In this document: positions 10,787-48,833 of the stretch, piece after piece
Layout: each line of letters opens with the position of its first letter
Position numbering within the stretch: the stretch's first letter is position 1
Assembly: GCA_043814605.1 (NCBI GenBank)
Contig: JBDRJV010000037.1
Span: 31,899 to 95,898, forward strand
Length of the DNA stretch: 64,000 nt
Origin: Candidatus Omnitrophota bacterium
GTDB lineage: Bacteria; Omnitrophota; Gorgyraeia; B26-G9
Direction of reading: 5' to 3'
The notes under the pieces: model-generated
The model's input: the letters and a program-made list of their open reading frames with translations, nothing else
What the model was told of the DNA's origin: nothing
The model's database searches: none
Translations under genes and position numbers: made by a program

Positions 10787-12253
10787 ATGAAAGTAGTTAT
10801 TGCAAACTCTATAGGTGTTGACAAAAATAACAATTTTATAATTCATTCTCCCAGTCGTTGGTCAGAAGGAGTTAAAAGTAAATCACATTGGTTTGCTTAT
10901 TATCCTTGGGAACTATCCTATTTATCCAGTTTATTAAAAAAAGAAACTGATTTTAATATTAAATTTTTAGATGGTTGTTTGATGCAATGGGATTCAGAAA
11001 CATATTTTTCTAAAATTACAACTATTAATCCAGATGTTTTGATTATGGAAAGTGCAACCAGAATGATTGATGAAAATGTTAATCTTGCTCGGCGCATTAA
11101 ACAAAAATGTCAGGCAACGATAATTTTTGTGGGCCAGCACGCCAGTGCTTTTCCACAAGAATTATTAACCCAGGGTATAGATTATGTTTGTATCGGAGAG
11201 TATGAATATACTGTGCTGGAATTGCTGCAGAATAAGGATAAGAGGCAGATTTTAGGGCTTTATCCTAATCCCAGAAGAGATTTATTAGATATTAACAGTT
11301 TACCCTGGCCTGAGGATTCTGACGTAAAACGTATTGATTATGCATCTCCGGGGGAACCGAGTTCAGAATATCGAGAAATTCAAATGTATGCATCCCGGGG
11401 TTGTCCGGGATCCTGCAGTTTTTGCGTTGCCAGGCACGTTTACTACAACCAGCCGAATTGGCGACCGAGAAAAATAGAAAACATTATTAGCGAAATTATT
11501 TATTTAAAAAATAAATATCCAAAGATGGAAGGAGTTTTTTTTGATGAAGAAGTTCATAATGGCAGAAAAGACTTTATCCTGGATTTAACGCAAGCCATAA
11601 TCGATGCAAAACTGAATAATTTAAAATATGAAGCGATGTGCGATGTAAGATTTTTAGATGAGCAGATCTTAGGAGCAATGAAAAGAGCTGGTTATTACAA
11701 GATCAGAATCGGCATTGAAACAGCAAGCCGGAAAATTATGCAGCAAATTAATAAAAAAATTGATTTAAAACAGGTTTTTAATCTGCTAAAGCTGGCCCAA
11801 AAAATTGGCATAAAAACCTACGGTACTTTTACTTTCGGAGCGCCGGGCTCTAATGAAACTGAGGATAAAAAAACAATTTTACTAATTCAAGATTTAATAA
11901 ATAATGATTATTTAGATAACTTACAGCTTTCAATTTGCACTCCTCAGCCAGGAACTCCTTTTTATGAAAAAGTAAAAGAAAATCATATGCTGCGAAATGA
12001 TTTAACTTTTAATATTTTTGACGGGGGGAATCATTGCATTATAAATTATCCAGATTATCATTATAAAATTATTGAAAAAACTAAACAAAATGCATTATTG
12101 ATGCGAGATCATTTTTTTTTAAAAAATAAAATTCAAAATAAGACTTTTTTCCAATGGATTGGGAATGTTTATAAAAAACATGGAGTTTTCAGAAGCGCGG
12201 CAAAGGCTTTTTTTAGAATATTAACAGAAATTAAATTTTATTTCGTAAAATGA
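10787..12253 (+). CDS. B12-binding-domain radical SAM protein (class B rSAM)
   Basis: An N-terminal Rossmann-like B12-binding region is followed by YASRGCPGSCSFCVA (CxxxCxxC). Confidence 0.75.
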   Translation: MKVVIANSIGVDKNNNFIIHSPSRWSEGVKSKSHWFAYYPWELSYLSSLLKKETDFNIKFLDGCLMQWDSETYFSKITTINPDVLIMESATRMIDENVNLARRIKQKCQATIIFVGQHASAFPQELLTQGIDYVCIGEYEYTVLELLQNKDKRQILGLYPNPRRDLLDINSLPWPEDSDVKRIDYASPGEPSSEYREIQMYASRGCPGSCSFCVARHVYYNQPNWRPRKIENIISEIIYLKNKYPKMEGVFFDEEVHNGRKDFILDLTQAIIDAKLNNLKYEAMCDVRFLDEQILGAMKRAGYYKIRIGIETASRKIMQQINKKIDLKQVFNLLKLAQKIGIKTYGTFTFGAPGSNETEDKKTILLIQDLINNDYLDNLQLSICTPQPGTPFYEKVKENHMLRNDLTFNIFDGGNHCIINYPDYHYKIIEKTKQNALLMRDHFFLKNKIQNKTFFQWIGNVYKKHGVFRSAAKAFFRILTEIKFYFVK

Positions 12254-13143
12254 TTGAAATCAGCATTGTTATTGTAACTTATTCTGCAGAGAAATTCATA
12301 AAAAATTGTTTAGATTCTGTTTTTGCGCAGGATTTAAATAATTTTGAAGTTATTATTATTGATAATAACTCTGGCGATAATACTATTAATATCTTAAAGA
12401 AATATTTGTCAAAAATAATTTTAATAGAAAATAAAAAAAATGAGGGTTTTTGTTTCGCAACTAATCAAGGCATATTACTTGCAAAAGGAAAATATATATT
12501 TACTTTAAATAGCGATGTTTACTTAAGTAAGGACTACGTTTTAAATTTAAAAAATTTTTTAGAAAGAAATTTAGAAGCAGGCATGGCAGGGGGTAAATTG
12601 TTAAGAATGGATAAAATAACTATCGATACTATCGGCCTAAAATTGGGGGTTTTTTATCGGTTCTTAAATATCGCAGAATCGGAGAAAGATACGGGTAAAT
12701 ATAAAGTTCCTTTAGAAATTATGGGTCCTTGTGCAGCCGCGGCCTTATATAAGCGGGAGCTTTTAGAGAGTATTAGATATAAGGATGAATTTTTTGATAA
12801 TCAGTTTTTTTTCTTGGCTGATGATTTTGATATTGCCTGGCGGGCACAGCGAATAGGTTGTAAGGGGTTTTATGTTCCAAATGCAGTTTGCTGGCATTAC
12901 CGGGATAGTTCAGGGCATAAATCCCAGTTCAAACAATACCTTTCATTCAGAAACAGGTATTATTTATTGATTAAAAATGCGGGTTTTAAAACTGTTTTTT
13001 TGTTTGCATTAGGTTTTTTATTTTATGATTTTCCCAGGCTGGTTTTTCTTTTAATAACTAATACTAAGTATACAGCGAAAGCAATAGCGGAAATTTTTAT
13101 GAATATGCCTGAAATTTTATCAAAGCGTGTAAAAAAAATATGA
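12250..13143 (+). CDS. GT2 family glycosyltransferase
   Basis: Has the IVIVTYSAEKF...IIIDNNSGDNT N-terminal GT-A signature and a DDFDIAWRAQ region. It is a paralog of 49120..50097. Confidence 0.7.
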   Translation: MIEISIVIVTYSAEKFIKNCLDSVFAQDLNNFEVIIIDNNSGDNTINILKKYLSKIILIENKKNEGFCFATNQGILLAKGKYIFTLNSDVYLSKDYVLNLKNFLERNLEAGMAGGKLLRMDKITIDTIGLKLGVFYRFLNIAESEKDTGKYKVPLEIMGPCAAAALYKRELLESIRYKDEFFDNQFFFLADDFDIAWRAQRIGCKGFYVPNAVCWHYRDSSGHKSQFKQYLSFRNRYYLLIKNAGFKTVFLFALGFLFYDFPRLVFLLITNTKYTAKAIAEIFMNMPEILSKRVKKI

Positions 13144-14252
13144 AAAAATTTACAAGAAGAGAATTTTTGCAAAAAGGAATAGGTTTAAGTACTGCAGTGG
13201 TCAGCGGACAGTTATTCAATGAAAATGTTTTTGCGCGTAATATTAATTTAACTAAACCAAGTCTTGTTTCAATAGCTAAAGGAAAGCATATTTCAAAAAT
13301 TACACAGGAAGCAATTCAAGAAATCGGAGGTATGGATAAAATAGTAAAACCGGGGCAAACTGTATTCATAAAACCTAATTATATTGCGGGAGGATTTATG
13401 GGGCATGATCCGGTGACTTCCGGAGAAATCCCGCATCCGGAAGTAGTGGCGGCAGTGGCCTGTGAATGTTTAGAAGCCGGGGCAAAAAATGTATTGATTG
13501 GAGAATGGTTTGAACGCCCGTTAGAAATAATGTGGCAGGGAAAAGAAGGTAAAGAAGGAGCTCAATTAAAGAAAAAAATTGATTTAATTAATAAAAAATA
13601 CGGAAATAAAGTATATTTAATTGATCTAAGAAAATATACAGAATCATTTTTTTATGTGCCTTCTTTGACAAAGATTAAATGGCTGGCGATTCCGAATTTA
13701 GTTAAAGAAGCAGATGTTATTATTTCAATTGCTGTTTTAAAAACACATCATTACCCAATTTCCGTAACTTTTGGCATGAAGAATTTTGTCGGTATTATGC
13801 CTTCCATTCTTTATGGTGAGCCCAGAATGAAATTACATCAGGCAGGGATTAATCAGATAATCGTAGATATCATACGGGGAATAACGCCAAGTTTAACAGT
13901 GATTAGCGGTGTTTTTGGCATGGAAGGAGAAGGAGTTGTTAAATCTTTTGGTGGAATTTCGGTTGATATCAGTCAAAGGATTGGCGGATACATTGTGATC
14001 GCAGGAGTTGATCCTGTAGCTACAGATGCTATAGCAACCCGGATTATAACTGAAAATTGGCATCCACAACCTAAAAATACTGATTTAGGAGTTCCTTGGT
14101 ATATTAAACATTTGAGACTGGCGTATCAACAGGGATTAGGCAATATAAAAAAATCAAATATTATAATTAAAGGTGCAGCTTTGAACGAGGTAAAAATGCC
14201 CTGGAAAATGCCGCAAGCCAATACATATCCGGAGTTACCTAATTATGTTTAG
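13140..14252 (+). CDS. Twin-arginine-signal DUF362-domain protein
   Basis: The N-terminus TRREFLQKGIGLSTAVVSG matches the Tat consensus S/T-RRxFLK plus an h-region. VFIKPNYIAGG resembles the DUF362 hallmark (IKPN). Domain call is by eye. Confidence 0.45.
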   Translation: MKKFTRREFLQKGIGLSTAVVSGQLFNENVFARNINLTKPSLVSIAKGKHISKITQEAIQEIGGMDKIVKPGQTVFIKPNYIAGGFMGHDPVTSGEIPHPEVVAAVACECLEAGAKNVLIGEWFERPLEIMWQGKEGKEGAQLKKKIDLINKKYGNKVYLIDLRKYTESFFYVPSLTKIKWLAIPNLVKEADVIISIAVLKTHHYPISVTFGMKNFVGIMPSILYGEPRMKLHQAGINQIIVDIIRGITPSLTVISGVFGMEGEGVVKSFGGISVDISQRIGGYIVIAGVDPVATDAIATRIITENWHPQPKNTDLGVPWYIKHLRLAYQQGLGNIKKSNIIIKGAALNEVKMPWKMPQANTYPELPNYV

Positions 14253-14826
14253 AAAAATAATTCAGATTTTAACAATAAGCATAATTTTTATTAGTTTCAA
14301 TAGGTATCTTTATGCAGAAAATTTATTTTATCCATTTGATGCCCGAGATATTACCGGGAAATGGCAGGAATCAGTAATCGAACAAGATGAGGTAATTAAG
14401 ACGGCATCCTTAAAAACAAAAGGAAAAATACAGTTAAATATCCCGGAAGATGGATTTTACCAATTATGCATTGAATTATATCACAATTGGCACAAATTCT
14501 GTCCTTTTATCTATTTTAATACGAGAGACAGCCAAGGAAAAACTTTTTCGGATTTTTTATTTTCAGAAAAACGATGGTATTTACCAGAAAATAGCGGCCG
14601 CTGGGAAATGAGGGCGCTGAGTGCAAATCCTTTTTGGTTTTTACATAAAGGTGAACTTAATATTGAATTCTGGCTCGAATCAAAACAATCTTGCTGGGAC
14701 AAACAGGATAAAGAAATAGAAGGAGAGTTTTATATTAAAAGATTTATTTTAGTAAAAGTTGATATGCTCGAAAAAAGCGATAAAAACTTTCAAACTAAAA
14801 ATTTAGAAAAAACAGAAGATTTTTAA
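14245..14826 (+). CDS. Hypothetical secreted protein
   Basis: N-terminal signal-peptide-like segment (ILTISIIFISFNRYLYA). No recognisable domain. Confidence 0.45.
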   Translation: MFRKIIQILTISIIFISFNRYLYAENLFYPFDARDITGKWQESVIEQDEVIKTASLKTKGKIQLNIPEDGFYQLCIELYHNWHKFCPFIYFNTRDSQGKTFSDFLFSEKRWYLPENSGRWEMRALSANPFWFLHKGELNIEFWLESKQSCWDKQDKEIEGEFYIKRFILVKVDMLEKSDKNFQTKNLEKTEDF

Positions 14827-14832
14827 TAAAAA

Positions 14833-15675
14833 ATGAAAAATAATAAAAAAATATTTTTAACATTTGACCTTGAAGAATGGCCGATAAGAGGACGTTATAA
14901 GATAGATCCTAATTTTGAAAAAAATACAAAGTTTTCAAAAAATGGAACTTTAAAATTAATGGATTTATTTAGTAAATACAATATTAAGTGTACTTTTTTT
15001 GTCACGGGTTTTTTTGCGCAAAATGAGCCAGAAGTTATAAAACTGCTTTCAAGTAAAGGGCATGAAATAGGTTCTCATTCTTTTGCGAACATTAATTTGT
15101 TGGATTTATCAATAGAGGATATTTATTCTGAATTAAGTGCAACAAAAAAATTACTAAAGGATTTAACCGGGCAAAATATAGTTAGTTTTCGTGCACCATT
15201 TTGTTGGTTAACACCCGATATTATTAAAATCTTAGAAAAGCTAGATTTTAAATATGATAGTTCAATTCATCCGGCAATTATTCCCGGCTATTATTATAAT
15301 TGGAAATATCCGCTGGATCCCTATTATCTTTGTTTAAAAAGTAAGTCATTTTTTAATAATAAGAGTAATGGGGTTTTAGAAATTCCTATATCCGTAATTC
15401 CCAGGGTAAGATTTCCTATTTCCTGGTGGTGGATGAGAAATTTAGGCGTAGGGATAACTAAATTAGGGATGAATATGAATTTAAACCAAAACCGGTCAGT
15501 AGTTTTATATTTTCATCCCTGGGAATTTGATAATATCCCTAGAATTAAGGGTATTCCTTATCATTTGATCAGAGGGTGCGGCAAAGCCAATTTAAAAAGA
15601 TTAGAAATTATAATAAAATTGTTTATAAAAAAATACCCCTTTGGTAAGATGAATGACTTTTTAGCTAAGGAATGA
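14833..15675 (+). CDS. Polysaccharide deacetylase (CE4 / NodB-homology; ArnD-like)
   Basis: TFDLEEWP (the D-D/E motif region) and HEIGSHSFAN (a NodB His motif) are present. Confidence 0.75.
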   Translation: MKNNKKIFLTFDLEEWPIRGRYKIDPNFEKNTKFSKNGTLKLMDLFSKYNIKCTFFVTGFFAQNEPEVIKLLSSKGHEIGSHSFANINLLDLSIEDIYSELSATKKLLKDLTGQNIVSFRAPFCWLTPDIIKILEKLDFKYDSSIHPAIIPGYYYNWKYPLDPYYLCLKSKSFFNNKSNGVLEIPISVIPRVRFPISWWWMRNLGVGITKLGMNMNLNQNRSVVLYFHPWEFDNIPRIKGIPYHLIRGCGKANLKRLEIIIKLFIKKYPFGKMNDFLAKE

Positions 15676-15814
15676 GAGATAATTAATCCGGTGAAGAGGA
15701 TTATTGCTAAACCCAATATAATATTTATTAAAAAATTAGGGACGGTTAAGTTTTAATTAGTTAAGATTTTTATATTTGAGTACAGTATTCCATAAAAGTT
15801 TAGAAAGAAAAGTT

Positions 15815-17362
15815 ATGAGAAAAATGTTTATGATAGTTGTATTCATGTTTTGCACAGTTTTAATTTATCTGGTAAGTTTATATTTATTTTCAAGAACTAA
15901 CATAGAATTATTTCCTCCCGATGAAATGGCCAAACTGACTATTGCTTTAGGCTATTACCAATACTTATTTTCCCCAGAGTTGATGCCGCAATCAAGTTTA
16001 TTTAGTGTAAATTTAAATTATTTCCCGCCGGTTTATTTTGTGACTTCAGCAATGGTCTGCCACTTATTTAACGGGTTTTCCATAAAAACATGTTTACTCT
16101 CAAATCTCATATATTTAGTTACTCTAATTATCTCTATTTTTTTTCTGACAAAAAAAATTAGCAAAAATGAAATGTGTGCTTTATTTGCACTATTTGTACT
16201 ATTATTTTTTGACCCTTTATTTTCTAGATTTTCAAGGCATTATGCAATGGAGTTTGGGGTAGCAAGTTTCGTTTGTTTATTTTTATGTGTTTTGGTTCAT
16301 CTAAATGAATTTAAAAATAAATATTGGTATATAGCGCTTGGCTTAATCTGGGCGATAGGGATGCTTATAAAATGGACATTTATTGTTTATGCTACAGTTC
16401 CATTAGGGGGCTTCATTTATACTTTAATACTAAATAAACGCAAACAAGAATTAAATAGACTTAAAATAAGTTTTTATGTGGGGGCAATAATTTTCGGTAT
16501 TTGGTTTATGTTATTTTGCGACCTATCTTTACTTGTGAATAAGTATTTCCGTACAATAAATCAGGAATCCGTTATTTTTGATATCGTATCGTATTTACAT
16601 TGTACTAAAGAAACATTTTTATTTTATTTAATATGGGTTCTTATTTATTTACCATTTTTATTATTTTTCTGGAAAATAAAATTTTCCTACAAAAAATTTT
16701 TATTAACCTGGGTAGGAGTTCCTTTTATTTTTTATTCTTTTTTTACCGGGTCGCCTTACAATAAGTATCTTATTCCGATAATTCCGGGATTAGCCGTATT
16801 GACAAGCGTAACAGTTTTTCGATTTAGTAGAAAACTTAAAAAATTTTTAATAATCTTGATTATAATAATTGGGCTGTTTATTTACGTATCAAATTGCTTA
16901 AATTCAGGCGATCGAGAAAAATGGAACATAAATAATATTGAAAATTTTAAAAAAATTATACAGATAATTAAAACTAAAGAAGATCCAGAAAATTTTAAAG
17001 ATTTATTATTGATCATAAATCAAGATACAATAAAAAGTAATGCTTTAAATGCTAATTCAATTTATTTACATTACTTATTAATGTTAGAAAAATTAAATGT
17101 AAATTTTACCCAGATGAATATTTATCATTTTAATAGAATTGAATGGTATGATTCAAGGGTGTTTCTTTCGAAAAATATTGTAGGTTATGACTATATTATT
17201 ATCTGCGATAAAGAAGATATTGATTTGCAAAGTATTAATTTTGATTTCCAAAGTTTTGAAAAATTAAATGAATATAATTTAATTTTAAAACATAATCAAA
17301 ACGAATATATATCGACAATTACATTTTTCAAAAAATTAATCCAAAATAAGAGTTTATTATAA
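15815..17362 (+). CDS. Polytopic membrane protein, GT-C-like glycosyltransferase
   Basis: The ORF track begins at a TTG (15776). The first in-frame ATG is at 15815 (MRKMFMIVV). The protein has >10 TM helices and a soluble C-terminal domain. Confidence 0.45.
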   Translation: MRKMFMIVVFMFCTVLIYLVSLYLFSRTNIELFPPDEMAKLTIALGYYQYLFSPELMPQSSLFSVNLNYFPPVYFVTSAMVCHLFNGFSIKTCLLSNLIYLVTLIISIFFLTKKISKNEMCALFALFVLLFFDPLFSRFSRHYAMEFGVASFVCLFLCVLVHLNEFKNKYWYIALGLIWAIGMLIKWTFIVYATVPLGGFIYTLILNKRKQELNRLKISFYVGAIIFGIWFMLFCDLSLLVNKYFRTINQESVIFDIVSYLHCTKETFLFYLIWVLIYLPFLLFFWKIKFSYKKFLLTWVGVPFIFYSFFTGSPYNKYLIPIIPGLAVLTSVTVFRFSRKLKKFLIILIIIIGLFIYVSNCLNSGDREKWNINNIENFKKIIQIIKTKEDPENFKDLLLIINQDTIKSNALNANSIYLHYLLMLEKLNVNFTQMNIYHFNRIEWYDSRVFLSKNIVGYDYIIICDKEDIDLQSINFDFQSFEKLNEYNLILKHNQNEYISTITFFKKLIQNKSLL

Positions 17363-18063
17363 TGAAAAATAAGCGTATTGCAATAATGCAGCCTGGATAT
17401 ATCCCCTGGTTGGGATTTTTTGAATTAATGGATAAAGCGGATTTATTTGTGTATTTAGATGACGTGCAGTATACAATCAGAGATTGGAGAAATAGGAATA
17501 GAATCAGGACGGCTCAGGGGTGGCAGTGGTTAAGTATTCCTGTATTGCATAAATCTAGACGGGAACAACTATTAAAGGATGCCTTAATTAATAATCAAAT
17601 TGATTGGAGGGGTAGTCATTTGCGTGCACTTGAGATTAATTATTCAAAAGCTAGTTTTTTTAGTAACAATTTTAGTGTAATAACGCAAATATTATTAAAA
17701 CATTGGGAAAATTTAACAGATTTAAATATTACAATGATTGAAGTTATCAGAGAATTATTAGGAATCAAAACTCCAACTATACGAGCATCTATGCTTAATA
17801 ATATTAAGACTGGTAAAACTCAACGAATAATTAGTATTTGTAAACAATTACAAGCAAATTATCTTTATGATAGCGCAGCAGCGGCTAGTTTTATTGATAT
17901 TGATTTGTTTGCAAAAGAGGGAATAGTAGTAGAATTTCAAAATTATAAACATCCTGAATATAAACAAGTATATAAACCATTTATTCCGTATATGTCTGTG
18001 TTAGACTTATTGTTTAACTGTGGGAGAGAAAGTTTGCAAAATATTTCTAATCGCAAAAAATAA
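17362..18063 (+). CDS. WbqC-like family protein
   Basis: The N-terminus KRIAIMQPGYIPWLGFFELMDKADLFVYLDDVQY matches the conserved start of WbqC-like proteins found in O-antigen loci. TAATG overlap with the upstream gene. Confidence 0.6.
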   Translation: MKNKRIAIMQPGYIPWLGFFELMDKADLFVYLDDVQYTIRDWRNRNRIRTAQGWQWLSIPVLHKSRREQLLKDALINNQIDWRGSHLRALEINYSKASFFSNNFSVITQILLKHWENLTDLNITMIEVIRELLGIKTPTIRASMLNNIKTGKTQRIISICKQLQANYLYDSAAAASFIDIDLFAKEGIVVEFQNYKHPEYKQVYKPFIPYMSVLDLLFNCGRESLQNISNRKK

Positions 18064-18131
18064 TAGATAAAATTAATTTTTAAAGCATAGATTTATGAAA
18101 AAGTATTTAAAAATTTGAAAGGATAAAACCA

Positions 18132-18968
18132 GTGAGGCTAATTAAAGTTTTCAATCTTTGCGTTGTTTTTTTTGCGGTTTTTAGCTTTTTGTCAAAATAC
18201 TGTTTAGAAGCTGCAGATAATCAATGTTTTAAAATAGTTCCTTTTAAAGTAGGTCAATGGGTCGAGTATCAGATCGTTAGTTTAGAGGAGCAAAGTAAAG
18301 ATAATAGATATAAAATTTCAGTTTTAAATGAAGAAATCATTGATGGAGAAATTTATTTTTGGATTGGTTTTGATGTTTTTAACCAAGGAAAAAGAGAAAT
18401 ATCATTTAAGGCCTTAATGAAAAATTTTAAAACAGATGACTTAAAGCTTAAAAAAGAGCAATTTATAGCAGAAGGGATAATAAGTTTTTTCAAAGCTTCG
18501 GATAAACTTTATATAAAAGCAGGTGGTAGCGAGTGGGTAGAGGTTAATCCTAAAACGTACTTTTTAAATTTGAAACTATTAGAAAATTCGTTCTATGAAC
18601 AGGTTCCGGATGAACTAGGGAAAGTTGATTATTCTAAACTTGTGATGATTGGGAGGGAAGAGATTAATGTTTCTTCTCAGGAATTTAACTGTTTGCATTA
18701 CCAAGTAAAAACTAATCCTTCGGATGAATTTTCTGATGAAGGGATAGATTTGTGGCGCTCAGATAAAGTGCCTTTTTTAGGAATTGTAAAATTAGAATTT
18801 TCAAAAACTGATTACGATCTTAAGTTGCGCTATCAAGAAAGCAAAATCCTTGCTTCAAAAAGTATTTTTTATAAAATTTTTTATTACTTATTTAACAAAT
18901 TACCTAAAGATACGCATACTCGTAAAGATATTTATAAAATAAATTTGATTGATTATAAAAATTATTAA
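18132..18968 (+). CDS. Hypothetical secreted protein
   Basis: GTG start. N-terminal signal-peptide-like segment (VFNLCVVFFAVFSFLSKYCLEA). No recognisable domain. Confidence 0.45.
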   Translation: MRLIKVFNLCVVFFAVFSFLSKYCLEAADNQCFKIVPFKVGQWVEYQIVSLEEQSKDNRYKISVLNEEIIDGEIYFWIGFDVFNQGKREISFKALMKNFKTDDLKLKKEQFIAEGIISFFKASDKLYIKAGGSEWVEVNPKTYFLNLKLLENSFYEQVPDELGKVDYSKLVMIGREEINVSSQEFNCLHYQVKTNPSDEFSDEGIDLWRSDKVPFLGIVKLEFSKTDYDLKLRYQESKILASKSIFYKIFYYLFNKLPKDTHTRKDIYKINLIDYKNY

Positions 18969-18987
18969 TTTTAACTGGGGTGGTCCA

Positions 18988-24746: not shown

Positions 24747-24752
24747 AGTTAT

Positions 24753-26135: not shown

Positions 26136-26144
26136 GAATAGAAT

Positions 26145-38918: not shown

Positions 38919-38924
38919 AGAATC

Positions 38925-40139: not shown

Positions 40140-40166
40140 TTATTAAATTGTTGCATATTTATAAGT

Positions 40167-41972: not shown

Positions 41973-43166
41973 ATGTCTATTTCGAGAAGAAATTTTTTAA
42001 AAAATAGTTTAAAATTTTGTGCAGGAGTTGGATTATGCATCTTAACAAAAAGTTTCTGGGATAATTTTGAAAATACAGAAAGGATAGACAATTTTTTATT
42101 AAAAGAAGCAAAATATTATCGTAAAGGAAGTAACAATACTGTGCAATGCTTATTATGTGCCAGAAATTGTGTAATTAAGGATAAAAAAAGAGGGTTTTGC
42201 CAAGCCAGGATAAATAGTAAAGGTAAATTATTTAGTATGGTATACGGAAGTGTGATTATAACCCATTCAAAGGATAGACCGTTTAGGTCTTTGATTTATT
42301 TTGCTAATGATATTGAAGGGCTATGTATTGGTACAGCTGGATGTAATATGAGATGCAAGTTTTGTCTTGCCTCAGGAATTAGTCAGGTAAAACCTGAAGA
42401 TATTAAGATTAATAATAGATTTCCTTTTACTATGAATAAGAAACAAAATAAGACTCAGATTCTTCCAGATCAATTGATAAGCATGGCCAAAAAAAACAAT
42501 GTAAAATTAATTCATTTTAATCTTAATGAACCTACAATATATTATGAGTATATGCTAGATGTGGCAAAAATAGCGGTAAAAAATGGAATTTTTACAATGC
42601 TATGGAGCAATGCATATATAAATAGGGACCCTTTGCTTGAGTTAGCTCCTTATTTAGGCGGAGCGAGCATTGGATTGAAAGCTTTTAACAATGATATCTA
42701 TAAAAAGTTTTGCAGCGGAGAATTAAGTCCGGTTTTAGATACTTTAAAGTTGCTGAAAAAACAAAAAATTCCTTTTGAGATAATTTATCCAGTCATTCCG
42801 ACTGTTAATGATGATACTCAACAAATTAAAGATATGTGTTTTTGGATTAAAGATAAATTGGGTACGGAAGTGCCATTGCATTTTTATCGTTTCCTGCCTA
42901 GGTATAAATTAGTTAATTATCCTCCAACCCCTATCTCAACCTTGGAATCCATACAGAGTTTGGCTAAAAATACTGGTCTAAAATATGTATATGTTTTCTA
43001 TATGGGAGATTATCCTATCCCGGGCATGGAAGAAAAAATTTATTGTCCAAATTGTAAGAAATTAGTTTTATTACGTAAAAATTTAAATAATCTTGTAATA
43101 AATAATACGAAAAATTCCTGTTGTAAATTTTGCGGTGAAAAATTACTTTTTTTTATTTTTAAATAA
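41973..43166 (+). CDS. AmmeMemoRadiSam-system-type / PflA-like radical SAM enzyme with N-terminal twin-arginine-like leader
   Basis: ATG with GAGAGGA 7 nt upstream. The N-terminus SRRNFLKNSLKFCAGVGLCIL matches the Tat consensus. CLLCARNCVIKDKKRGFCQARINSKGKLFSMVYG followed by GTAGCNMRCKFCLASGIS matches the characteristic N-terminal half of AmmeMemoRadiSam/PFL-activase-type rSAMs. Confidence 0.7.
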   Translation: MSISRRNFLKNSLKFCAGVGLCILTKSFWDNFENTERIDNFLLKEAKYYRKGSNNTVQCLLCARNCVIKDKKRGFCQARINSKGKLFSMVYGSVIITHSKDRPFRSLIYFANDIEGLCIGTAGCNMRCKFCLASGISQVKPEDIKINNRFPFTMNKKQNKTQILPDQLISMAKKNNVKLIHFNLNEPTIYYEYMLDVAKIAVKNGIFTMLWSNAYINRDPLLELAPYLGGASIGLKAFNNDIYKKFCSGELSPVLDTLKLLKKQKIPFEIIYPVIPTVNDDTQQIKDMCFWIKDKLGTEVPLHFYRFLPRYKLVNYPPTPISTLESIQSLAKNTGLKYVYVFYMGDYPIPGMEEKIYCPNCKKLVLLRKNLNNLVINNTKNSCCKFCGEKLLFFIFK

Positions 43167-43234: not shown

Positions 43235-44644
43235 ATGAGAGTTCAATTTATTTTTCCGCCTTATACGCATAAAAAATTTGAAGAGGACATTTCAATTGTC
43301 AGCCGTAGATTTGGTATTTTCCCGCCGTTAGGGCTTGCATTTGCGGCGGCTATTTTAGAGGCACAGGGACATTGTGTGGATATTATTGATGCGCGGGCTT
43401 CGAATCTATCAAAAGAGCAGACACTGCAAAGAATAAAATATTTTCAGCCTAAATTACTGGGATTTATGCTCACGTTTTATATGTTTCATGATACTTTAGT
43501 CTGGATTAAATTTTTTAAAGAAAAAACTAATATCCCGATTATTGTCGGTAATGTATTAATGGAGTTTTTCCCGCAGGACGTGATGGCGTATCCTGAGATT
43601 GATTATGGAATTATTGGCTCCGCGCAAAAAAATTTACCGCTACTCATAGAATTTTTGGAAAATAATAAAAATATCGAAAACATTAGTGGGCTTTGTTATC
43701 GTAAAGATGGACAAGTAATTATTAATAAACCCAAAGAATTATTTGAGGATTTTCAGACTTTGCCTTTTCCGGCAAGGCATTTATTGCCTAATCATAAGTA
43801 CCATGCGGTAATGTCAAAACGTAAAAATCTTACGATAATGGTTACAACCCGTGGATGTGCCGCTAGCTGTAATTTCTGTCATATTAAAGATATTAAATAT
43901 TCAGCTAGGTCAGCCCAGATGGTTGTGGATGAAATGCAAGAGTGTTATGAAAAATTTAATGTGCGTGAAATTGAAATATTTGATCCTACTTTCAATATGG
44001 ATAAACGCAGAGTGATGGATATTTGCCAAGGCATAGTTGATAGAAAACTGGATATTGATTGGGCTTGCCGTGCGAGAATTGATTGCATGAACCCAGAAAT
44101 GTTGAAAATTATGTGTCAGGCTGGGTGCAAAAGAATATTATACGGGATTGAATCAGGCGATGAAAATATTCTTAAAAAAATTAAGAAAGGAATAAATTTA
44201 TCACAAATTAGAGATACGATTAAAGCTACCCAAGATTTAGGAATAAAGGCATTAGGATTTTTTCTTTTAGGGAGTCCCGGAGATAGTTTAAAAACTATTA
44301 ATAAAACAGTTAAATTTGCTAAAGAATTAAAGCTTGATTATGCGCAATTTCATAAAACAATAGCAAAACCTGGAACCGAATTGTACGACCAAGTTAAGAA
44401 TTATACAGGACGCGATTTATGGAGAGAATATATTCTAGGTAAATATCCAGAATCAAGATTACCTACGCCTTGGACAGATTTATCAGCTCAAACCATAGAG
44501 CAGTGCACTTATCAAGCGTATCGAAAATTCTATTTTAGAATTGGTTACCTCTGGCAAACTCTTAGAGGAATAAAATCATTTCATGAATTTAAGAGATACC
44601 TAGCTTCTTTTTTTGGTTTAATTTTTGAAAAACGGGATTATTAA
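43235..44644 (+). CDS. B12-binding-domain radical SAM protein
   Basis: N-terminal B12-binding-like domain, then VTTRGCAASCNFCHI (CxxxCxxC). Confidence 0.75.
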   Translation: MRVQFIFPPYTHKKFEEDISIVSRRFGIFPPLGLAFAAAILEAQGHCVDIIDARASNLSKEQTLQRIKYFQPKLLGFMLTFYMFHDTLVWIKFFKEKTNIPIIVGNVLMEFFPQDVMAYPEIDYGIIGSAQKNLPLLIEFLENNKNIENISGLCYRKDGQVIINKPKELFEDFQTLPFPARHLLPNHKYHAVMSKRKNLTIMVTTRGCAASCNFCHIKDIKYSARSAQMVVDEMQECYEKFNVREIEIFDPTFNMDKRRVMDICQGIVDRKLDIDWACRARIDCMNPEMLKIMCQAGCKRILYGIESGDENILKKIKKGINLSQIRDTIKATQDLGIKALGFFLLGSPGDSLKTINKTVKFAKELKLDYAQFHKTIAKPGTELYDQVKNYTGRDLWREYILGKYPESRLPTPWTDLSAQTIEQCTYQAYRKFYFRIGYLWQTLRGIKSFHEFKRYLASFFGLIFEKRDY

Positions 44645-44659
44645 AAGGAATTAATTTAA

Positions 44660-46144
44660 ATGAAAATAATGTTTTATTATTCTGCCTTTGAAAATTTAGG
44701 CATTGAATATCTTTCTGCAGTTTTAAAACAATCCGGACATAAAACCCGCCTTCTCTTTGATCCGGGTTTATTTAACGACCCTTTTTTGAGTATTAAACCA
44801 TTGGCTAAAATTTTCAACTGGGAGAAAAAATTATTACGTGAATTTACCCAATACAATCCGGGTTTAGTAGCCTTTTCTGTGACGAGTTCAACTTATTTAG
44901 CCGCATTGGATTTTTCAAAAAAACTTAAAAAAATAACGAAAATTAAAATAGTTTTTGGCGGGATCCATGCCAGTGCAGTGCCAGAGGTTGTTATAAAGGA
45001 TGATGCAGTTGATTACTTAATTGTGGGTGAAGCAGAAGAAGCTTTATTGGAACTAGTCGAGGCATTAGAAAACAATAAACCGATTAATAGCATTAAAAAT
45101 CTGTGGTATAAAGATAGGTATAAAATCTTTAATAATTCTTTAAGAGACTATATTACTGATCTTGATAAACTTCCATTTCCAGATAAGGATCTTTATTATG
45201 ATCAAATTCCTGAATATAGAAGCGGGTATACAATAATTACCCGCCGGGGTTGTCCGAATCATTGTGCTTATTGCCATAATAGTTTATGGCATAAATTATA
45301 TAAAGATTATGACAGTGAAATTGTCCGGTACCGAGGGGTAGATAATGTAATTACAGAGTTAAAACAGGCAAAAAAAAAGTATAATTTTAAAAGGGTTCGC
45401 ATAAACGATGAAATTTTTACTCTTAATGAAGGCTGGTTAAAGGAATTCTCTGCAATGTATAAGAAATATATTAATCGGCCAATGTTCTGTTTTGTTAGTC
45501 CTCATACTGTAAACGAAAAAACTGTAGAATGTTTAAAAGCTATGAATTGTTATCAGGTTTGTATGGGTGTGCAAACTCTAAATGAAGAAAAGAATAGAAT
45601 CTTGTTAAACCGCAATCAAACTAATAATCAGGTAAAACAGGCAATTAAATTATTTCGTGAATATAAAATTCGTTGTGTTGTGGATAATATAATTGGTTTA
45701 CCTGGTGAAAAGGAAGAAGATTTATTGCAGATGGCAAGGTTTTATAATAATAACCGTCCCGATAGGATTTGTATTTTTTGGCTGATTTATTTCCCTGGGA
45801 CAAAAATTATAGATGCAGGATTAGAAAAAGAGGTGCTTAACCAAAAAATGCTAGAAGAAATTAAAACAAATCCGCAAGCTACAGCGAATACTATCTATAG
45901 TCTGTTACATGAAAGGGGCAAGAATAAGTATTATATTTTGCTTCTGCTGATACATTTTTTACCTAAAAATATTATTGATTTTATCATAAAGAAAAGATTA
46001 TTTGAATTATTTTCATTATTAAACCCCTCGTTGATTGAAATCCCTTTTACGATGATTGCTCGGGACAGATTAGATATAGTCAGACGCAGATATTATTCAC
46101 GTTATATCAAATATGGAATTAAAAAATTATTTTTAGTTGGATAA
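44660..46144 (+). CDS. B12-binding-domain radical SAM protein (paralog subfamily 'LGIEYLSA')
   Basis: LGIEYLSAVLKQSGH, ITRRGCPNHCAYCHN, C-terminal IHFLPKNIIDFIIKKRLF. Confidence 0.8.
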   Translation: MKIMFYYSAFENLGIEYLSAVLKQSGHKTRLLFDPGLFNDPFLSIKPLAKIFNWEKKLLREFTQYNPGLVAFSVTSSTYLAALDFSKKLKKITKIKIVFGGIHASAVPEVVIKDDAVDYLIVGEAEEALLELVEALENNKPINSIKNLWYKDRYKIFNNSLRDYITDLDKLPFPDKDLYYDQIPEYRSGYTIITRRGCPNHCAYCHNSLWHKLYKDYDSEIVRYRGVDNVITELKQAKKKYNFKRVRINDEIFTLNEGWLKEFSAMYKKYINRPMFCFVSPHTVNEKTVECLKAMNCYQVCMGVQTLNEEKNRILLNRNQTNNQVKQAIKLFREYKIRCVVDNIIGLPGEKEEDLLQMARFYNNNRPDRICIFWLIYFPGTKIIDAGLEKEVLNQKMLEEIKTNPQATANTIYSLLHERGKNKYYILLLLIHFLPKNIIDFIIKKRLFELFSLLNPSLIEIPFTMIARDRLDIVRRRYYSRYIKYGIKKLFLVG

Positions 46145-46177
46145 ATATTAAATTGATCAAAGTATCAGGATAAAATT

Positions 46178-47167
46178 ATGAATTCAGGATTATTGAATAT
46201 ATTAAAAATTGTTAGAATTTTTTTTAAAGTAAAATTTTTTAGAAATAAAATTCCTATTTTTGTGGGCTGGGATTTAACTTACAGGTGTAACTTTAATTGT
46301 CAATATTGTAAAATTCCGAAACTTGATACCGATCGAGAATTGTCAACGGATAAGGTGTTAAAAATGATAGATCAGTTTAGTAAACTTGGTGTTTGCCGTA
46401 TACATTTTGGTGGGGGAGAGGTTCTATTACGAGATGATCTTGATCAAATTTTAAAATTTTGTAAAAAAAGAAATATTTATACTGTTATTCTCACAAATGG
46501 AGCTTTATTTGAAGCTAAGATACCTGTTATAAAGAAAGCAAATCTAATAAAAGTAAGTTTTGATGGTCCTGCTAAAATTCATGATAATTTGCGTCATAAG
46601 GGGTCTTATAGTCAGATTGTTAAAGTATTAGTTTTAGCAAAAAAACTTAAAATAAAAGTAACGTTAAGTGCAACTTTAACTAGAAAAAATTATGAATATA
46701 TTGATTATATTTTAGATTTTGCTAAAGAAAATAGGACCCCAGTAAAATTTCAGTTAGTTAATGAGTTCTTGTCAGGATCTAAAGACATTGCTAATCTTAA
46801 GCTTTCCCGAGAGCAGCAGCAGAAGGCAATGGGAAAATTATTAAAGGAAAAAAAGAGGAGCGGGTATATAATAAATTCTAAAAATGCACTGGAGTATATG
46901 CGTGATTACCCAAATGTAAAAAATTTATGTTGTACGGCAGGAAAGCTTTATGTGCGTGTTTCTGTTGATGGAAGGCTATATCCGTGCGAAATACTAAAAG
47001 ATGAGTTTTTAAAAAATACATCTTTTGAAAAAGATATCGGTAAATCATTCAAAGTATTAAAAAATGTTAATTGTAAATATTGTTTATGTACTACAACATT
47101 AGAATTAAATCAATTATTTTCTTTAAATTTAAATGCAATTTTTAATGGGCTAAAGTATTTTAGTTAA
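46178..47167 (+). CDS. Radical SAM / SPASM-domain protein
   Basis: DLTYRCNFNCQYCK (CxxxCxxC). The C-terminus has CCTAGKLY...CE...CKYCLC, consistent with SPASM. Confidence 0.8.
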   Translation: MNSGLLNILKIVRIFFKVKFFRNKIPIFVGWDLTYRCNFNCQYCKIPKLDTDRELSTDKVLKMIDQFSKLGVCRIHFGGGEVLLRDDLDQILKFCKKRNIYTVILTNGALFEAKIPVIKKANLIKVSFDGPAKIHDNLRHKGSYSQIVKVLVLAKKLKIKVTLSATLTRKNYEYIDYILDFAKENRTPVKFQLVNEFLSGSKDIANLKLSREQQQKAMGKLLKEKKRSGYIINSKNALEYMRDYPNVKNLCCTAGKLYVRVSVDGRLYPCEILKDEFLKNTSFEKDIGKSFKVLKNVNCKYCLCTTTLELNQLFSLNLNAIFNGLKYFS

Positions 47168-47387
47168 AATTTAATATGGCTAAGAACTAATTCTATATTA
47201 AGAATTATAGAAGAACTTTTCCGTGTTATTAATAAAAAAATGGTTCGATTGTGGAAACAAAGTTTAACGTTTTTTTTCGACAATATTGCTTTTGTATTTT
47301 TAGAATTGATAAACGAATCTTCAATTAGAAATAAGAACTGTAGTTTAAAAGTAATTTTTTTATTACCAACACTATGGAGGATGAAGT

Positions 47388-48833
47388 TTGAAAATATTAC
47401 TTATAGTTGAGGAAACTTTTTATATGGATAGACTGGGCATTTTATATTTAAGTTATCCTCTAAAGCGTTTCAACTATGATGTCAAACTTGCTGTTTTTGC
47501 TAAAGAGGGGTTTCCAGGAATAGAACAAATAATGCAAGAATATTCTCCGGATATTGTTGGTTATAGTATGATGACTGGTGAGTATAATACGCTTAATAGA
47601 GTAAATAAGTATTTAAAAAATAAATTTAATTTTTTATCAGTTTTTGGAGGTCCTCACCCGACATTTTATCCGGATTTAATTAAAGAATCCCATATTGACG
47701 CAATTTGTGTAGGAGAGGGAGATATTGCTTTTGCGGAGTTTTGTCGGAGAGTTAAAGAGAGCGATAAATATTGGCAAACTCCAGGGTTTTATGTAAAGCA
47801 TAATGGTAATATTTTTAGTAATCCACTATTATCTTTAGTTAAAGATTTAGACCAATTATCTTTTCCAGATAGAAAATTAATGTATGAGGCCCAACCTGAT
47901 GTCTATGAAGATGGAACCAAAGTTTTTATATCTTCTCGTGGATGCCCTTATAGTTGTTCATATTGTTTTAATAAAAAATATAATGATATTTATAAAAATA
48001 AGTCAATTGTAGTTCGTCATCGTTCGCCTAATAATGTAATTCAGGAAATTGATGCTACTAAGCAGGAATACGGATTAAGACATGTATTTTTTTTAGATGA
48101 TATTTTTACGATAAAACCTAAGGGATGGGTAGAAGAGTTTTCAACACTATATAAGCAAAAGATTGATCTGCCGTTTTCTTGTCACGTACGTGCAAATCTG
48201 GTAAGCGATAGTGAGATAAAACTATTAAAAAATGCCGGCTTAAATTCAGTTTTAATCGGAATAGAATGTGGGGATGAGAGAGTATCAAATGAAGTGTTAA
48301 ATAGAAATTTATCGAATAAAATAATTTTTCAAGCAATACAAATTTTAAAAAAACATGATATTAAAATATGGACACATAATTTATTGGGGATCCCAGTTAA
48401 GGATAGTTTCGAAGTAGGAATTAAAACGCTTGATATGAATTTAAAAATAAGACCAGTTTATGCCCATTCAGGCTTACTTTTTCCTTATCCTGGGACTGAA
48501 ATTCGGAAGCAATCATTACGAAATAATTTTTTGAATGAAAATAGTGTTTTTTTTGAAACTCATCAAAAATATTCAGTTTTTAATTTTAATAAAAAAGAAA
48601 AATCTCAGATTGAAAGATTGCATTATTTATTTGGATTAACAGTTCGTTTTCCTTTTTTACGTAAAATAATTAGATTGCTTGTAAAAATTCCTTTATCAGG
48701 ATTTTATTTTATGATTTTTTATGTTTGGTATGGATACAATCTTAAATTTAAATTTTTTCCCATGCAGTCTTGGACAAAAGAAATAAAAAAATATGTCAAA
48801 TTAGGGGAAAAGATACTAAAAAAACATAATTAA
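47388..48833 (+). CDS. B12-binding-domain radical SAM protein
   Basis: N-terminal B12-binding-like domain, then ISSRGCPYSCSYCFN (CxxxCxxC). Confidence 0.75.
   Translation: MKILLIVEETFYMDRLGILYLSYPLKRFNYDVKLAVFAKEGFPGIEQIMQEYSPDIVGYSMMTGEYNTLNRVNKYLKNKFNFLSVFGGPHPTFYPDLIKESHIDAICVGEGDIAFAEFCRRVKESDKYWQTPGFYVKHNGNIFSNPLLSLVKDLDQLSFPDRKLMYEAQPDVYEDGTKVFISSRGCPYSCSYCFNKKYNDIYKNKSIVVRHRSPNNVIQEIDATKQEYGLRHVFFLDDIFTIKPKGWVEEFSTLYKQKIDLPFSCHVRANLVSDSEIKLLKNAGLNSVLIGIECGDERVSNEVLNRNLSNKIIFQAIQILKKHDIKIWTHNLLGIPVKDSFEVGIKTLDMNLKIRPVYAHSGLLFPYPGTEIRKQSLRNNFLNENSVFFETHQKYSVFNFNKKEKSQIERLHYLFGLTVRFPFLRKIIRLLVKIPLSGFYFMIFYVWYGYNLKFKFFPMQSWTKEIKKYVKLGEKILKKHN

Follow-up and report, generated by a model that had tools for sequence, protein, structure and literature searches.

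Why would one stretch of bacterial chromosome carry nine genes for radical S-adenosylmethionine (SAM) enzymes with a cobalamin (B12)-binding domain, and on what would their products act? The question is raised by 64,000 nt from a Candidatus Omnitrophota bacterium (GenBank assembly GCA_043814605.1, contig JBDRJV010000037.1, positions 31,899 to 95,898 of the forward strand), hereafter the window, in which an earlier note had located the nine genes between positions 10,787 and 48,833, grouped four of them in a tight paralog subfamily and proposed that all nine perform iterative or multi-site modification of one scaffold. The analysis reported here indicates that these genes belong to a larger set of radical SAM genes interspersed with glycan genes and that the locus is, as far as orthology and gene order can tell, a composite of at least two conserved cassettes. 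With a probability of roughly 0.6, the region would represent most of a chromosomal envelope glycoconjugate island (O-antigen, lipopolysaccharide or surface-glycan type) whose aminosugar units are tailored, probably in lipid-linked form, by radical SAM enzymes.

The window has a G+C content of ca. 29% and contains 49 open reading frames (ORFs) of at least 150 aa, every one on the + strand, with a coding density of 95%; 37 of the 48 gene junctions overlap or measure at most 30 nt and this packing, together with the coding density, indicates that the gene clustering is not due to chance. Pfam annotation of all ORFs detected 20 radical SAM genes, namely nine of the B12 type, six with a Zn_ribbon_HMPTM domain that resemble Tes and GDGT-MAS (GDGT, glycerol dialkyl glycerol tetraether), two of the SPASM type, two plain ones and one of the AmmeMemoRadiSam type; the earlier count of nine was thus exact for the B12 type but too low for the locus. 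The remaining genes mainly encode glycan machinery, with four PMT_2 proteins (ArnT/PMT-type GT-C glycosyltransferases), three GT2 and one GT4 glycosyltransferases, three DegT aminotransferases, a NodB-type deacetylase, a WbqC and a Wzy_C protein, next to two small SAM methyltransferases, a DUF362 protein and three unannotated polytopic proteins with 10 to 12 transmembrane (TM) segments in hydropathy plots. Glycosyltransferases, sugar-modifying enzymes and a Wzy/WaaL-type protein therefore lie in one co-directional cluster, as in surface-glycan loci, and both gene packing and Pfam content bear out the description of the locus as operon-like and glycan-associated. The right edge of the island lies at ca. 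54.3 kb, the division and cell wall (dcw) cluster starting at 54.5 kb, while its left edge lies beyond the start of the window. No tRNA was found in the window as a possible integration site; scans for promoters (99 matches against 105.5 in shuffled sequences) and for terminators (12 against 7.6 +- 2.6, barely above the shuffled level) were both uninformative.

The nine B12-type ORFs listed in the earlier note are all present at their coordinates, and are given here with their assignment to cassettes A and B (described below); genes are designated by their start position and loci from other genomes by labels of the type L001.

10787..12253, + strand: B12-type radical SAM gene, divergent (PF02310 38 bits, PF04055 61.4 bits; CPGSCSFC at residue 206)
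20818..22284, + strand: B12-type radical SAM gene of the 'LGIEYLSA' subfamily, orthogroup 20818, cassette B (Pfam; 34-40% identity to the other three members)
28860..30458, + strand: B12-type radical SAM gene, linked to cassette A elsewhere (Pfam; best model BchE, 164.8 against 481 bits)
35228..36715, + strand: B12-type radical SAM gene of the 'LGIEYLSA' subfamily, orthogroup 35228, cassette B (Pfam; own clade)
36739..38199, + strand: B12-type radical SAM gene of the 'LGIEYLSA' subfamily, orthogroup 36739, cassette B (Pfam)
40167..41591, + strand: B12-type radical SAM gene, the first of a block absent from L037 and L075 (PF02310 80.5 bits)
43235..44644, + strand: B12-type radical SAM gene, cassette A, upstream partner of 44660 (Pfam; HpnJ 193.4 against 577.6 bits)
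44660..46144, + strand: B12-type radical SAM gene of the 'LGIEYLSA' subfamily, orthogroup 44660, cassette A (Pfam; AlphaFold2 model)
47388..48833, + strand: B12-type radical SAM gene, distant relative of the subfamily (LGILYLS; Pfam; 29-32% identity to the subfamily)

In each of these proteins the B12-binding domain PF02310 (38-80.5 bits, gathering cut-off 32.1) lies N-terminal to a Radical_SAM core, PF04055 (41.3-77.5 bits, gathering cut-off 29.5), with a single CxxxCxxC motif at residues 186-213. The earlier note had let its class-B assignment depend on the N-terminal domains scoring as B12-binding; all nine do so, both domains passing their gathering cut-offs in 9 of 9 proteins. Profile and motif, together with the fold obtained for 44660, support this assignment and, by analogy with the enzyme class, one may reasonably expect methylation or some other difficult radical transformation. 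The product of 44660 is 100% identical to NCBI MFH1460440.1, annotated only as "radical SAM protein".

The fold was predicted with AlphaFold2 from a 17-sequence alignment for 44660, the only member modelled (mean pLDDT 90.4, pTM 0.89). The top Foldseek matches of this model are MgmA/QCMT, TsrM, CysS, TokK and OxsB (PDB entries 9CCB, 6WTE, 9N1D, 7KDX and 5UL4; E 6e-20 to 2e-15; query-normalised TM-scores 0.61-0.68), at only 13-18% identity to these solved class-B members, and the predicted architecture of 44660 corresponds to class I (Rossmann domain, TIM barrel and C-terminal domain). AprD4, which has the same fold and is cobalamin-free, is also among the matches. Cobalamin is bound base-off without a histidine ligand in such enzymes and no diagnostic sequence motif exists (PMC12931638); the nine proteins are putatively cobalamin-dependent, a property that neither sequence nor fold reveals.

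None of the nine reaches a curated NCBIfam cut-off, so that no function can be transferred to them. HpnJ (TIGR03471) is the top named model for 10787, 20818, 35228, 43235 and 47388, and the best or second-best one for these and 40167, with 193.4 bits for 43235 (152.5 for 10787) and 81-177 bits for the others against a cut-off of 577.6. BchE (TIGR02026) is the best model for 40167 (182.7 bits, followed by HpnJ with 176.7 against 578) and for 28860 (164.8 bits), its cut-off being 481; PhpK gives at most 131 against 600 bits, and AprD4 (NF033070) 100.2 bits (43235) against 500. Membership in the BchE family was rejected, the window having no tetrapyrrole gene. Membership in the hopanoid pathway was rejected as well, since scores fall far below the cut-off and hopanoid context is absent from the window: neither squalene-hopene cyclase nor HpnH, HpnI or HpnK was detected there by Pfam or NCBIfam, the HpnH model giving 49, 71 and 61 bits against 225 on the radical SAM proteins 2511, 22287 and 46178, which have no B12 domain. 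By sequence, the closest solved relatives of the nine are QCMT, AprD4, OxsB, CysS and TokK, all weak matches; 10787 matches QCMT (9CCB, E=1.6e-14), and 43235 matches AprD4 (6FD2, E=9.5e-24) over the barrel only (residues 168-385).

The likeness to QCMT/MgmA, a protein methylase and the best solved relative of several members, also raises the possibility that peptides or proteins are modified, either in a pathway for peptides that are synthesised ribosomally and modified after translation (RiPPs) or by C-methylation as with PoyB/C, TsrM, QCMT and Mmp10, and both TIGR03975 and ApyD (NF050148) are among the matching models. Their scores are, however, at most 94.5 against 281.85 bits and 138.6 against 750 bits, respectively, and the likeness to QCMT is at the level of the general fold (18% identity). 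The window has no leader peptidase, RiPP recognition element, YcaO, lanthipeptide or ABC/C39 gene, and the intergenic gaps at 41591-41973, 47167-47388, 48833-49120 and 53491-56336 contain no precursor-like small ORF, the last one holding mraZ and an ftsL-like gene. The RiPP reading was rejected and we give peptide or protein modification in general next to no credence.

The four genes 20818, 35228, 36739 and 44660 do form a subfamily, with 34-41% mutual identity over roughly their full length, but this is not a tight one and its members are old, separate orthogroups; the truly tight paralog set of the locus consists of the four tandem Tes-like genes at 23388-28855 (56-60% mutual identity). Among the five genes described as more divergent, 47388 is distantly related to the subfamily (29-32%), and the other four show 22-28% identity to any of the rest. 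The motifs put forward for the subfamily hold in part: the C-terminal (I/L)HFLP is exact in 36739 and 44660 only (20818 has YILP and 35228 QFLP), and the N-terminal motif is degenerate in 35228 (MR.., LGIQYLSS, GY), with 20818 having IDPMF instead of DPxLF. Residues G14, I15, Y17, S19, D34, P35 and F38, LPxPD and the radical SAM cysteines are invariant among the 17 aligned sequences, and ENLGIEYLSA...FDPxLF, LPFPDK and the FLP region are kept in homologues of several phyla, so that these motifs represent a family-wide signature rather than a local peculiarity. In a neighbour-joining tree of 108 subfamily sequences, each paralog of the window falls in its own clade together with sequences of other genomes (58, 34, 4 and 3 members), the largest clade being that of 44660 (more than 50 loci) and the second that of 36739 (12 loci). 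All four are closer to foreign orthologs (45-65%) than to one another (34-41%), and this clade structure indicates that the duplications are older than the divergence of these lineages. Three of the four belong to cassette B (20818, 35228 and 36739) and one to cassette A (44660). All four also have a hydrophobic segment in the HFLP region, for which the subfamily has a median maximum hydropathy of 1.42 against ca. 0.9; this C-terminal segment faintly suggests an association with the membrane.

The family of 44660 has a wide distribution among uncultured anaerobes. Its members were collected by a protein search, which found hosts among Omnitrophota, Patescibacteria, Elusimicrobiota, Woesearchaeota and Clostridiales, and by a scan of species-representative genomes, which yielded 456 relatives with one genome per species. 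The best 80 of these 456 all come from uncultured organisms (metagenome-assembled genomes, one single-cell genome and one unnamed bacterium), most of them Omnitrophota, with Elusimicrobiota, Planctomycetota, archaea, Thermodesulfobacteriota, Myxococcota, Gemmatimonadota, Acidobacteriota, Clostridia and Cloacimonadota among the others. Neighbourhoods of at least 15 kb (49 in all) were scored within +-10 kb, a survey biased in that loci entered it through their similarity to 44660 and only proteins of the window were used for scoring: 24 of the 49 have at least three B12-type radical SAM genes and 15 have at least five, with a maximum of eight, and Tes-like genes co-occur in 18, GT2 in 16, DegT in 10 and the deacetylase in 10. 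Independently annotated contigs of Patescibacteria, Elusimicrobia and Clostridiales have 5-7 B12-type genes each, interleaved with GT2, PMT_2, deacetylase and DegT genes. Peptidase_U32 genes were also seen among the B12-type genes of Patescibacteria L001 (14853-18597) and Clostridiales L003 (13205-14140), none occurring in the window. Some members of the Peptidase_U32 family are known as oxygen-independent hydroxylases.

Best-hit and gene-order analysis resolved two cassettes. Cassette A is composed of a GT2 gene (12250-like), 28860, 43235, 44660, the radical SAM gene 46178 and the NodB-type deacetylase gene, and is devoid of Tes-like genes. These six are found in Patescibacteria L001 with 43%, 53%, 58%, 55%, 38% and 30% identity, respectively; Planctomycetia L008 has the GT2 (39%), 28860 (52%), 43235 (58%), 44660 (55%) and the deacetylase (28%) with no counterpart of 46178, and Omnitrophota L004 has the deacetylase (52%), 43235 (64%), 44660 (58%) and 46178 (46%). 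The pair 43235/44660 is adjacent in Elusimicrobia L002/L040 (54% and 47%), and wherever the order could be read (L001, L002/L040, L004 and L008) the 43235 ortholog lies directly upstream of that of 44660; 43235 has further orthologs in L005 and L007 (56% each). Those of 28860 reach 82% in L024/L059 and, in L001 and L008, lie directly upstream of the 43235/44660 orthologs, while the 46178 homologues of L004 and L001 come directly after the 44660 ortholog.

Cassette B is composed of WbqC, 18132, 18949, 20818, Tes-like genes, DegT 31866, SPASM 32930, Tes-like 33882, 35228, 36739, GT2 38154 and a DegT gene, and recurs in the same order in L024/L059, L037, L020 and L030, with 20818, 35228 and 36739 at 40-65% identity. 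Orthologs of 20818 (54% in L059, 45% in L020, 42% in L030) always come directly after the 18132/18949 pair, and those of 35228 (65% in L024, 58% in L037, 51% in both L020 and L030) are always directly upstream of a 36739 ortholog (59% in L024, 54% in L075, 53% in L037). An ortholog of 40167 exists in L024 (48%); for 47388, none was found at 40% or more among the fetched loci. Cassettes A and B occur separately in Omnitrophota, Patescibacteria, Planctomycetota and Elusimicrobiota.

The chromosomal site itself is shared with two other Omnitrophota species, L037 and L075 (RsmH 74-75% and FtsI 66-67% identity), in which 36739 is followed by GT2, DegT, GT2, Wzy_C, rsmH and ftsI. There the 38925-like DegT gene directly precedes the 49120-like GT2 gene (13793-15983 in L037, 2561-4750 in L075), which indicates that, at this site, the window has 8.9 kb more (block 40167-48833). 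This block has six radical SAM genes, four of the B12 type together with the AmrS-type enzyme 41973 and 46178, and no repeats were found to bound it, only AT-rich chance matches. In surface-glycan loci it is typical that a whole gene block is present or missing at a fixed site. The proposal that the nine enzymes modify one scaffold is not supported in the form given: the genes are split over at least two independently occurring cassettes, each with its own GT2 and an aminotransferase or deacetylase, and a block with four of the nine is absent in two relatives. Distinct old orthogroups in at least two portable cassettes argue against one recently expanded family working on one scaffold, and several separately tailored building blocks would be the more parsimonious view on the basis of gene content and order.

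Eleven further radical SAM genes accompany the nine:

within 837..10781, + strand: SPASM radical SAM gene 2511, in the left part of the island (Pfam)
22287..23339, + strand: radical SAM gene without B12 domain, paralog of 46178 (Pfam; 26% identity over 331 residues, E=2e-33)
23388..28855, + strand: four tandem Tes/GDGT-MAS-like radical SAM genes (23388, 24753, 26145 and 27509; Zn_ribbon_HMPTM and Radical_SAM)
30448..31851, + strand: Tes/GDGT-MAS-like radical SAM gene (Zn_ribbon_HMPTM and Radical_SAM)
31866..33895, + strand: DegT (31866-32933) and SPASM radical SAM (32930-33895) genes, cassette B (Pfam; PseC 249.5 against 423.5 bits)
33882..35222, + strand: Tes/GDGT-MAS-like radical SAM gene, cassette B (Pfam; 54% L024, 52% L037, directly upstream of the 35228 ortholog)
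41973..43166, + strand: AmmeMemoRadiSam-type radical SAM gene (TIGR04337 231.3 bits, above the cut-off of 220)
46178..47167, + strand: radical SAM gene without B12 domain, cassette A, following 44660 (Pfam; 46% L004, 38% L001)

DegT 31866 and SPASM 32930 overlap by 4 nt and are kept as an adjacent pair in at least four loci (L024, L037, L030 and L031); the pair recalls BtrS/BtrN, in which a ketone made by a dehydrogenase would then be transaminated. The product of 41973 begins with a twin-arginine signal (MSISRRNFLK) followed by a hydrophobic stretch. Export of a SAM-dependent enzyme would be odd. The homologue of 41973 in L069 has a hydrophobic N-terminal anchor and its ortholog in L024, called from the first Met, has none. 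No AMMECR1 or Memo partner is found for it in the window.

The Tes-like genes, in which two diverged copies (30448 and 33882) lie near the tandem four, all among sugar genes and not lipid genes, bear on the most serious rival explanation, namely that the locus remodels membrane lipids: Tes-like, B12-type and SPASM enzymes would act on lipid hydrocarbon chains by coupling, cyclisation, methylation and bridging, as do Tes/Mss, GrsA/B, Hgm/Gmm and Hbs, and the glycosyltransferases would only add head groups. All six Zn_ribbon_HMPTM proteins are clear homologues of GDGT-MAS (7TOL, E=3.5e-40), with PF23545 above its cut-off, and a hydrophobic segment is present in all of them as well as in the four subfamily members. 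All classes of GDGT-modifying enzymes (Tes-like, B12-type and SPASM) are represented in the window, and homologues of Mss and Hbs have been reported in Omnitrophota (bioRxiv 10.1101/2023.10.20.563219); 'rSAM_ladder_B12' and HpnJ/HpnR are among the top models. Against this, the six score 123-150 bits on the Tes model NF045702 against a cut-off of 450, no more than on the unrelated TrsS model, and they are ca. 60-80 residues shorter than GDGT-MAS, the alignment being confined to GDGT-MAS residues 20-389. Pfam scans of the window detected no acyl-, alkyl- or prenyltransferase, no plasmalogen or ether-lipid enzyme and no Mss. The family-assigned enzymes that are not radical SAM proteins are all sugar-related except for the two small methyltransferases and DUF362, the three sugar aminotransferases and the deacetylase would have no role in chain remodelling, and cassette A does without Tes-like genes. 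Overall, we consider lipid-chain remodelling unlikely.

The genes for sugar metabolism and assembly, and those of the right boundary, are distributed as follows:

837..10781, + strand: left part of the island, with PMT_2 GT-C genes (837, 4119 and 5561), SPASM radical SAM 2511, methyltransferase 3569, DegT 7050, 10-TM unknown 8189 and GT4 9678 (Pfam, hydropathy)
12250..15675, + strand: GT2 12250, DUF362 13140, unknown 14245 and NodB-type polysaccharide deacetylase 14833 (Pfam)
15776..17362, + strand: PMT_2 (ArnT/PMT-type GT-C; Pfam 33.5 against 26.1 bits; ca. 10 TM segments)
17362..20805, + strand: WbqC-like 17362, 1-TM unknown 18132 and 10-TM unknown 18949, head of cassette B (WbqC 254 bits; hydropathy)
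38154..40139, + strand: GT2 38154 and DegT 38925 (PseC/ArnB-like), end of cassette B (Pfam; orthologs at 57% and 56% in L037/L075)
49120..54290, + strand: right end of the island, with GT2 49120, Wzy_C O-antigen ligase/polymerase-like 50091, 12-TM unknown 51758 and SAM methyltransferase 53697 (Pfam, hydropathy)
54531..60939, + strand: dcw cluster with mraZ, rsmH, ftsL-like, ftsI, murE and murF, right boundary (Pfam; ORF reading for mraZ and ftsL-like)

The best match of GT2 38154 is ArnC (75.4 against 529 bits), and DegT 38925 scores 368.8 against 423.5 bits on PseC and 360.4 against 631 on ArnB. Equivalog models of ArnB, ArnC, ArnD and ArnT are not reached, only the general families PF01041, PF00535, PF01522 and PF13231 being found, so that the resemblance to the Arn pathway is one of logic, by analogy, and not of membership. 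These best matches, together with the NodB-type deacetylase and PMT_2, suggest aminosugars on polyprenyl phosphate that would be transferred outside the membrane. GT2 49120 and Wzy_C 50091 are kept directly upstream of rsmH in L037/L075.

Several other features of this part of the locus were noted. The pair 18132 (278 aa, one TM segment) and 18949 (618 aa, 10 TM segments) is conserved, has no Pfam family and is always located upstream of the 20818 orthogroup (L020, L030, and twice in L059, at 1228-3932 and 7286-10004). The DegT ORF 7050-8282 matches Pfam in two stretches, the best covering residues 33-203, and has hydrophobic segments at 218-248; its last 94 nt are shared with ORF 8189 (TTG start), which may mean an insertion or a wrong start for 8189. 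No family match was found for the polytopic proteins 8189-9676 (ca. 10 TM segments) and 51758-53491 (ca. 12 TM segments) even at E up to 10, nor anything usable for the seven unannotated ORFs as a whole against Pfam at this threshold; 8189 and 51758 are candidates for unrecognised glycosyltransferases, flippases or polymerases. After murF, where the usual dcw order would place mraY, the segment 60954-63130 encodes two proteins, one of them DUF3108-like and the other unannotated, with faint TPR-like matches.

The same sugar genes could also serve a diffusible specialised metabolite, such as an aminoglycoside, an aminocyclitol or a moenomycin-like phosphoglycolipid, made with GenK/Fms7/MoeK5-type C-methylases, an AprD4-type dehydratase and a BtrN-type dehydrogenase working with an aminotransferase. 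Indeed, the enzyme set parallels aminoglycoside tailoring (three DegT enzymes, a SPASM enzyme beside DegT, the AprD4-like barrel of 43235, deacetylase and glycosyltransferases), and class-B sugar methylases are known from gentamicin, fortimicin and moenomycin (PMC9204698). The AprD4 model, however, scores only 100 against 500 bits, and the window has no 2-deoxy-scyllo-inosose or inositol-phosphate synthase, resistance gene, exporter or regulator. Moreover, four to seven GT-C-type polytopic enzymes and Wzy_C point to assembly at the outer face, and a fixed dcw-adjacent site with block presence or absence between species resembles a surface-glycan locus, which makes a diffusible product quite improbable.

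The envelope glycoconjugate island remains the reading we prefer, and it draws on domain content, fold, orthology, cassette structure and chromosomal site. According to this proposal, DegT enzymes would transaminate nucleotide sugars (Arn-like logic), small GT2 enzymes would load sugars onto a lipid carrier, the NodB-type deacetylase would de-N-acylate them, and GT-C (PMT_2) and Wzy_C-type enzymes would carry out the final transfer on the membrane's outer face. Under anoxic conditions, unactivated carbons of the sugar units would be tailored by the twenty radical SAM enzymes. Of these, the class-B-type nine would most likely serve as C-methyltransferases and/or catalyse HpnJ-, OxsB- or AprD4-like rearrangements or dehydrations, the SPASM enzymes beside DegT would probably convert a hydroxyl by oxidation into a ketone for transamination (the familiar BtrN/BtrS logic), and the Tes-like enzymes would probably form C-C bonds. 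Class-B or related radical SAM enzymes are known to act on lipid-linked sugars, with HpnI/HpnK/HpnJ on the glucosamine of bacteriohopanetetrol, MoeK5 on moenomycin and Cds on the hexose head group of GDGT (PMC9204698, PMC13459092). These precedents, the ranking of the HpnJ model and the Arn-like sugar genes led us to propose one radical-tailored sugar unit per cassette, each cassette probably making one modified building block.

Several points weigh against this reading. We infer the substrates, the lipid-linked stage, the use of cobalamin and the types of reaction, and none of the curated cut-offs mentioned above provides a function for the nine. As to cobalamin, AprD4 and ArsL have the fold without binding it (PMC12931638), AprD4 is the best solved relative of 43235, and Rfam and Pfam scans of the window detected no RNA family, cobalamin riboswitch included, and no cobalamin gene. 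As to the lipid-linked sugar, lipid chains are the target of Tes-family and several class-B enzymes, so that a lipid moiety could be acted on here rather than a sugar; the hydrophobic segment of the HFLP region exceeds a TM-like threshold in no more than 30 of 107 family members, all Arn-like assignments are under their cut-offs, and the link of 18949 to the PMT_2 GT-C core is weak (hhalign probability 77%, E=2e-5). As to the pathway, Pfam scans of the 64-kb window detected no nucleotide-sugar synthase or lipid A gene and no recognisable initiating phosphoglycosyltransferase, flippase or ABC exporter (E up to 10 for the unannotated polytopic ORFs); initiating and exporter genes may sit to the left of the window, as the island runs off that end. 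The bias of the neighbourhood survey also has to be counted here.

A bolder proposal, doubtful though conceivable, is that the cassettes encode a so far undescribed kind of envelope glycobiology, in which aminosugars on polyprenyl phosphate are rebuilt by consecutive radical reactions before their placement by GT-C enzymes, giving C-branched, carbocyclic or C-C cross-linked surface glycans that resist hydrolysis and whose genes are shared horizontally among Omnitrophota, Patescibacteria, DPANN-type archaea and Elusimicrobiota. The class-B enzymes would then perform C-methylation and ring contraction or deoxygenation, and the Tes-like enzymes C-C couplings, in hosts that are ultra-small or host-associated anaerobes.

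Few reservoirs of difficult chemistry still to be characterised are as large as that of the class-B radical SAM enzymes, whose studied members come almost all from antibiotic, cofactor or lipid pathways. The locus described here points to another arena, the cell envelope of uncultured anaerobes, with portable cassettes of three to five such enzymes accompanied by glycosyltransferases, aminotransferases and deacetylases. The fixed order across phyla of the orthogroups 43235/44660/28860/46178 and 20818/35228/36739, the latter with their Tes-like partners, makes them tractable for heterologous reconstitution. Radical tailoring of envelope sugars would tie the availability of cobalamin to the synthesis of surface structures in lineages thought to depend on other cells, and sugar substrates of the Tes-like enzymes, if confirmed, would extend the range of reactions known for the tetraether-synthase family.

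When compared to known systems, the nine share with the class-B class I enzymes TokK, QCMT/MgmA, TsrM, CysS and OxsB a Rossmann-type PF02310 domain and a radical SAM core with CxxxCxxC, to which the model of 44660 adds the TIM barrel and a C-terminal domain of helices, but the substrates of these enzymes (a carbapenam, the glutamine of methyl-coenzyme M reductase, tryptophan, a cystobactamid precursor and a nucleoside) have no counterpart in the gene context of the window. In the Arn pathway, which produces the aminoarabinose of lipid A, ArnB is a DegT enzyme, ArnC a GT2 enzyme that transfers onto undecaprenyl phosphate, ArnD a NodB-type deformylase acting on the lipid-linked sugar and ArnT a PMT_2-type GT-C enzyme. 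All four enzyme types are present in the window, and Arn is an established case of a sugar being tailored on polyprenyl phosphate ahead of its transfer by a GT-C enzyme, but the window lacks ArnA, ArnE and ArnF and has several GT-C and 20 radical SAM genes, which Arn lacks.

In the hopanoid pathway, HpnI is a GT2 enzyme, HpnK a deacetylase and HpnJ a class-B radical SAM enzyme that contracts the ring of lipid-bound glucosamine, and the same three-part logic is found in cassette A with its GT2, de-N-acetylase and HpnJ-like B12-type genes (PMC13459092, PMC9204698). The differences are that HpnJ scores in the window are 81-193 bits against 577.6, that there is no squalene-hopene cyclase or HpnH and no HpnI match for the GT2 protein, and that cassette A has three B12-type radical SAM genes and one other radical SAM gene instead of one. 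The deacetylase also differs, being NodB-type (PF01522), whereas HpnK is YdjC-type. Tailoring of aminoglycosides and phosphoglycolipids (the C-methylases GenK/GenD1/Fms7/MoeK5, the diol dehydratase AprD4 and the BtrN/BtrS pair) likewise combines class-B and SPASM/Twitch radical SAM enzymes that act on amino sugars with DegT-family aminotransferases, but the window has no aminocyclitol core synthase and its context is envelope assembly (GT-C, Wzy_C). With Tes/GDGT-MAS and the GDGT radical SAM set (Grs, Hbs, Hgm and Cds) it shares the co-occurrence of Tes-like, B12-type and SPASM genes, the difference being that its Tes-like genes have sugar aminotransferase and GT2 genes as neighbours instead of lipid genes.

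Finally, the nearest case in the literature, the group VI nitrogenase-paralog clusters of groundwater Elusimicrobia (Meheust et al., bioRxiv 10.1101/765248), has up to 13 radical SAM genes in one neighbourhood, some with B12-binding domains, and also occurs in uncultured anaerobes; the clusters are defined by NifH/D/K-like genes and have been proposed to reduce tetrapyrroles. Identity with them was rejected as they are a different system, no nitrogenase-like gene occurring in the window. No prior description of glycan loci rich in B12-type radical SAM genes in Omnitrophota or the Candidate Phyla Radiation was found in the searchable literature, a negative that does not prove that none exists. 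Enzyme superfamily and type of locus are both known already, and what is uncharacterised is their combination, with cassettes that cross phyla and orthogroups that fit no characterised family and that probably carry out so far uncharacterised sugar chemistry.

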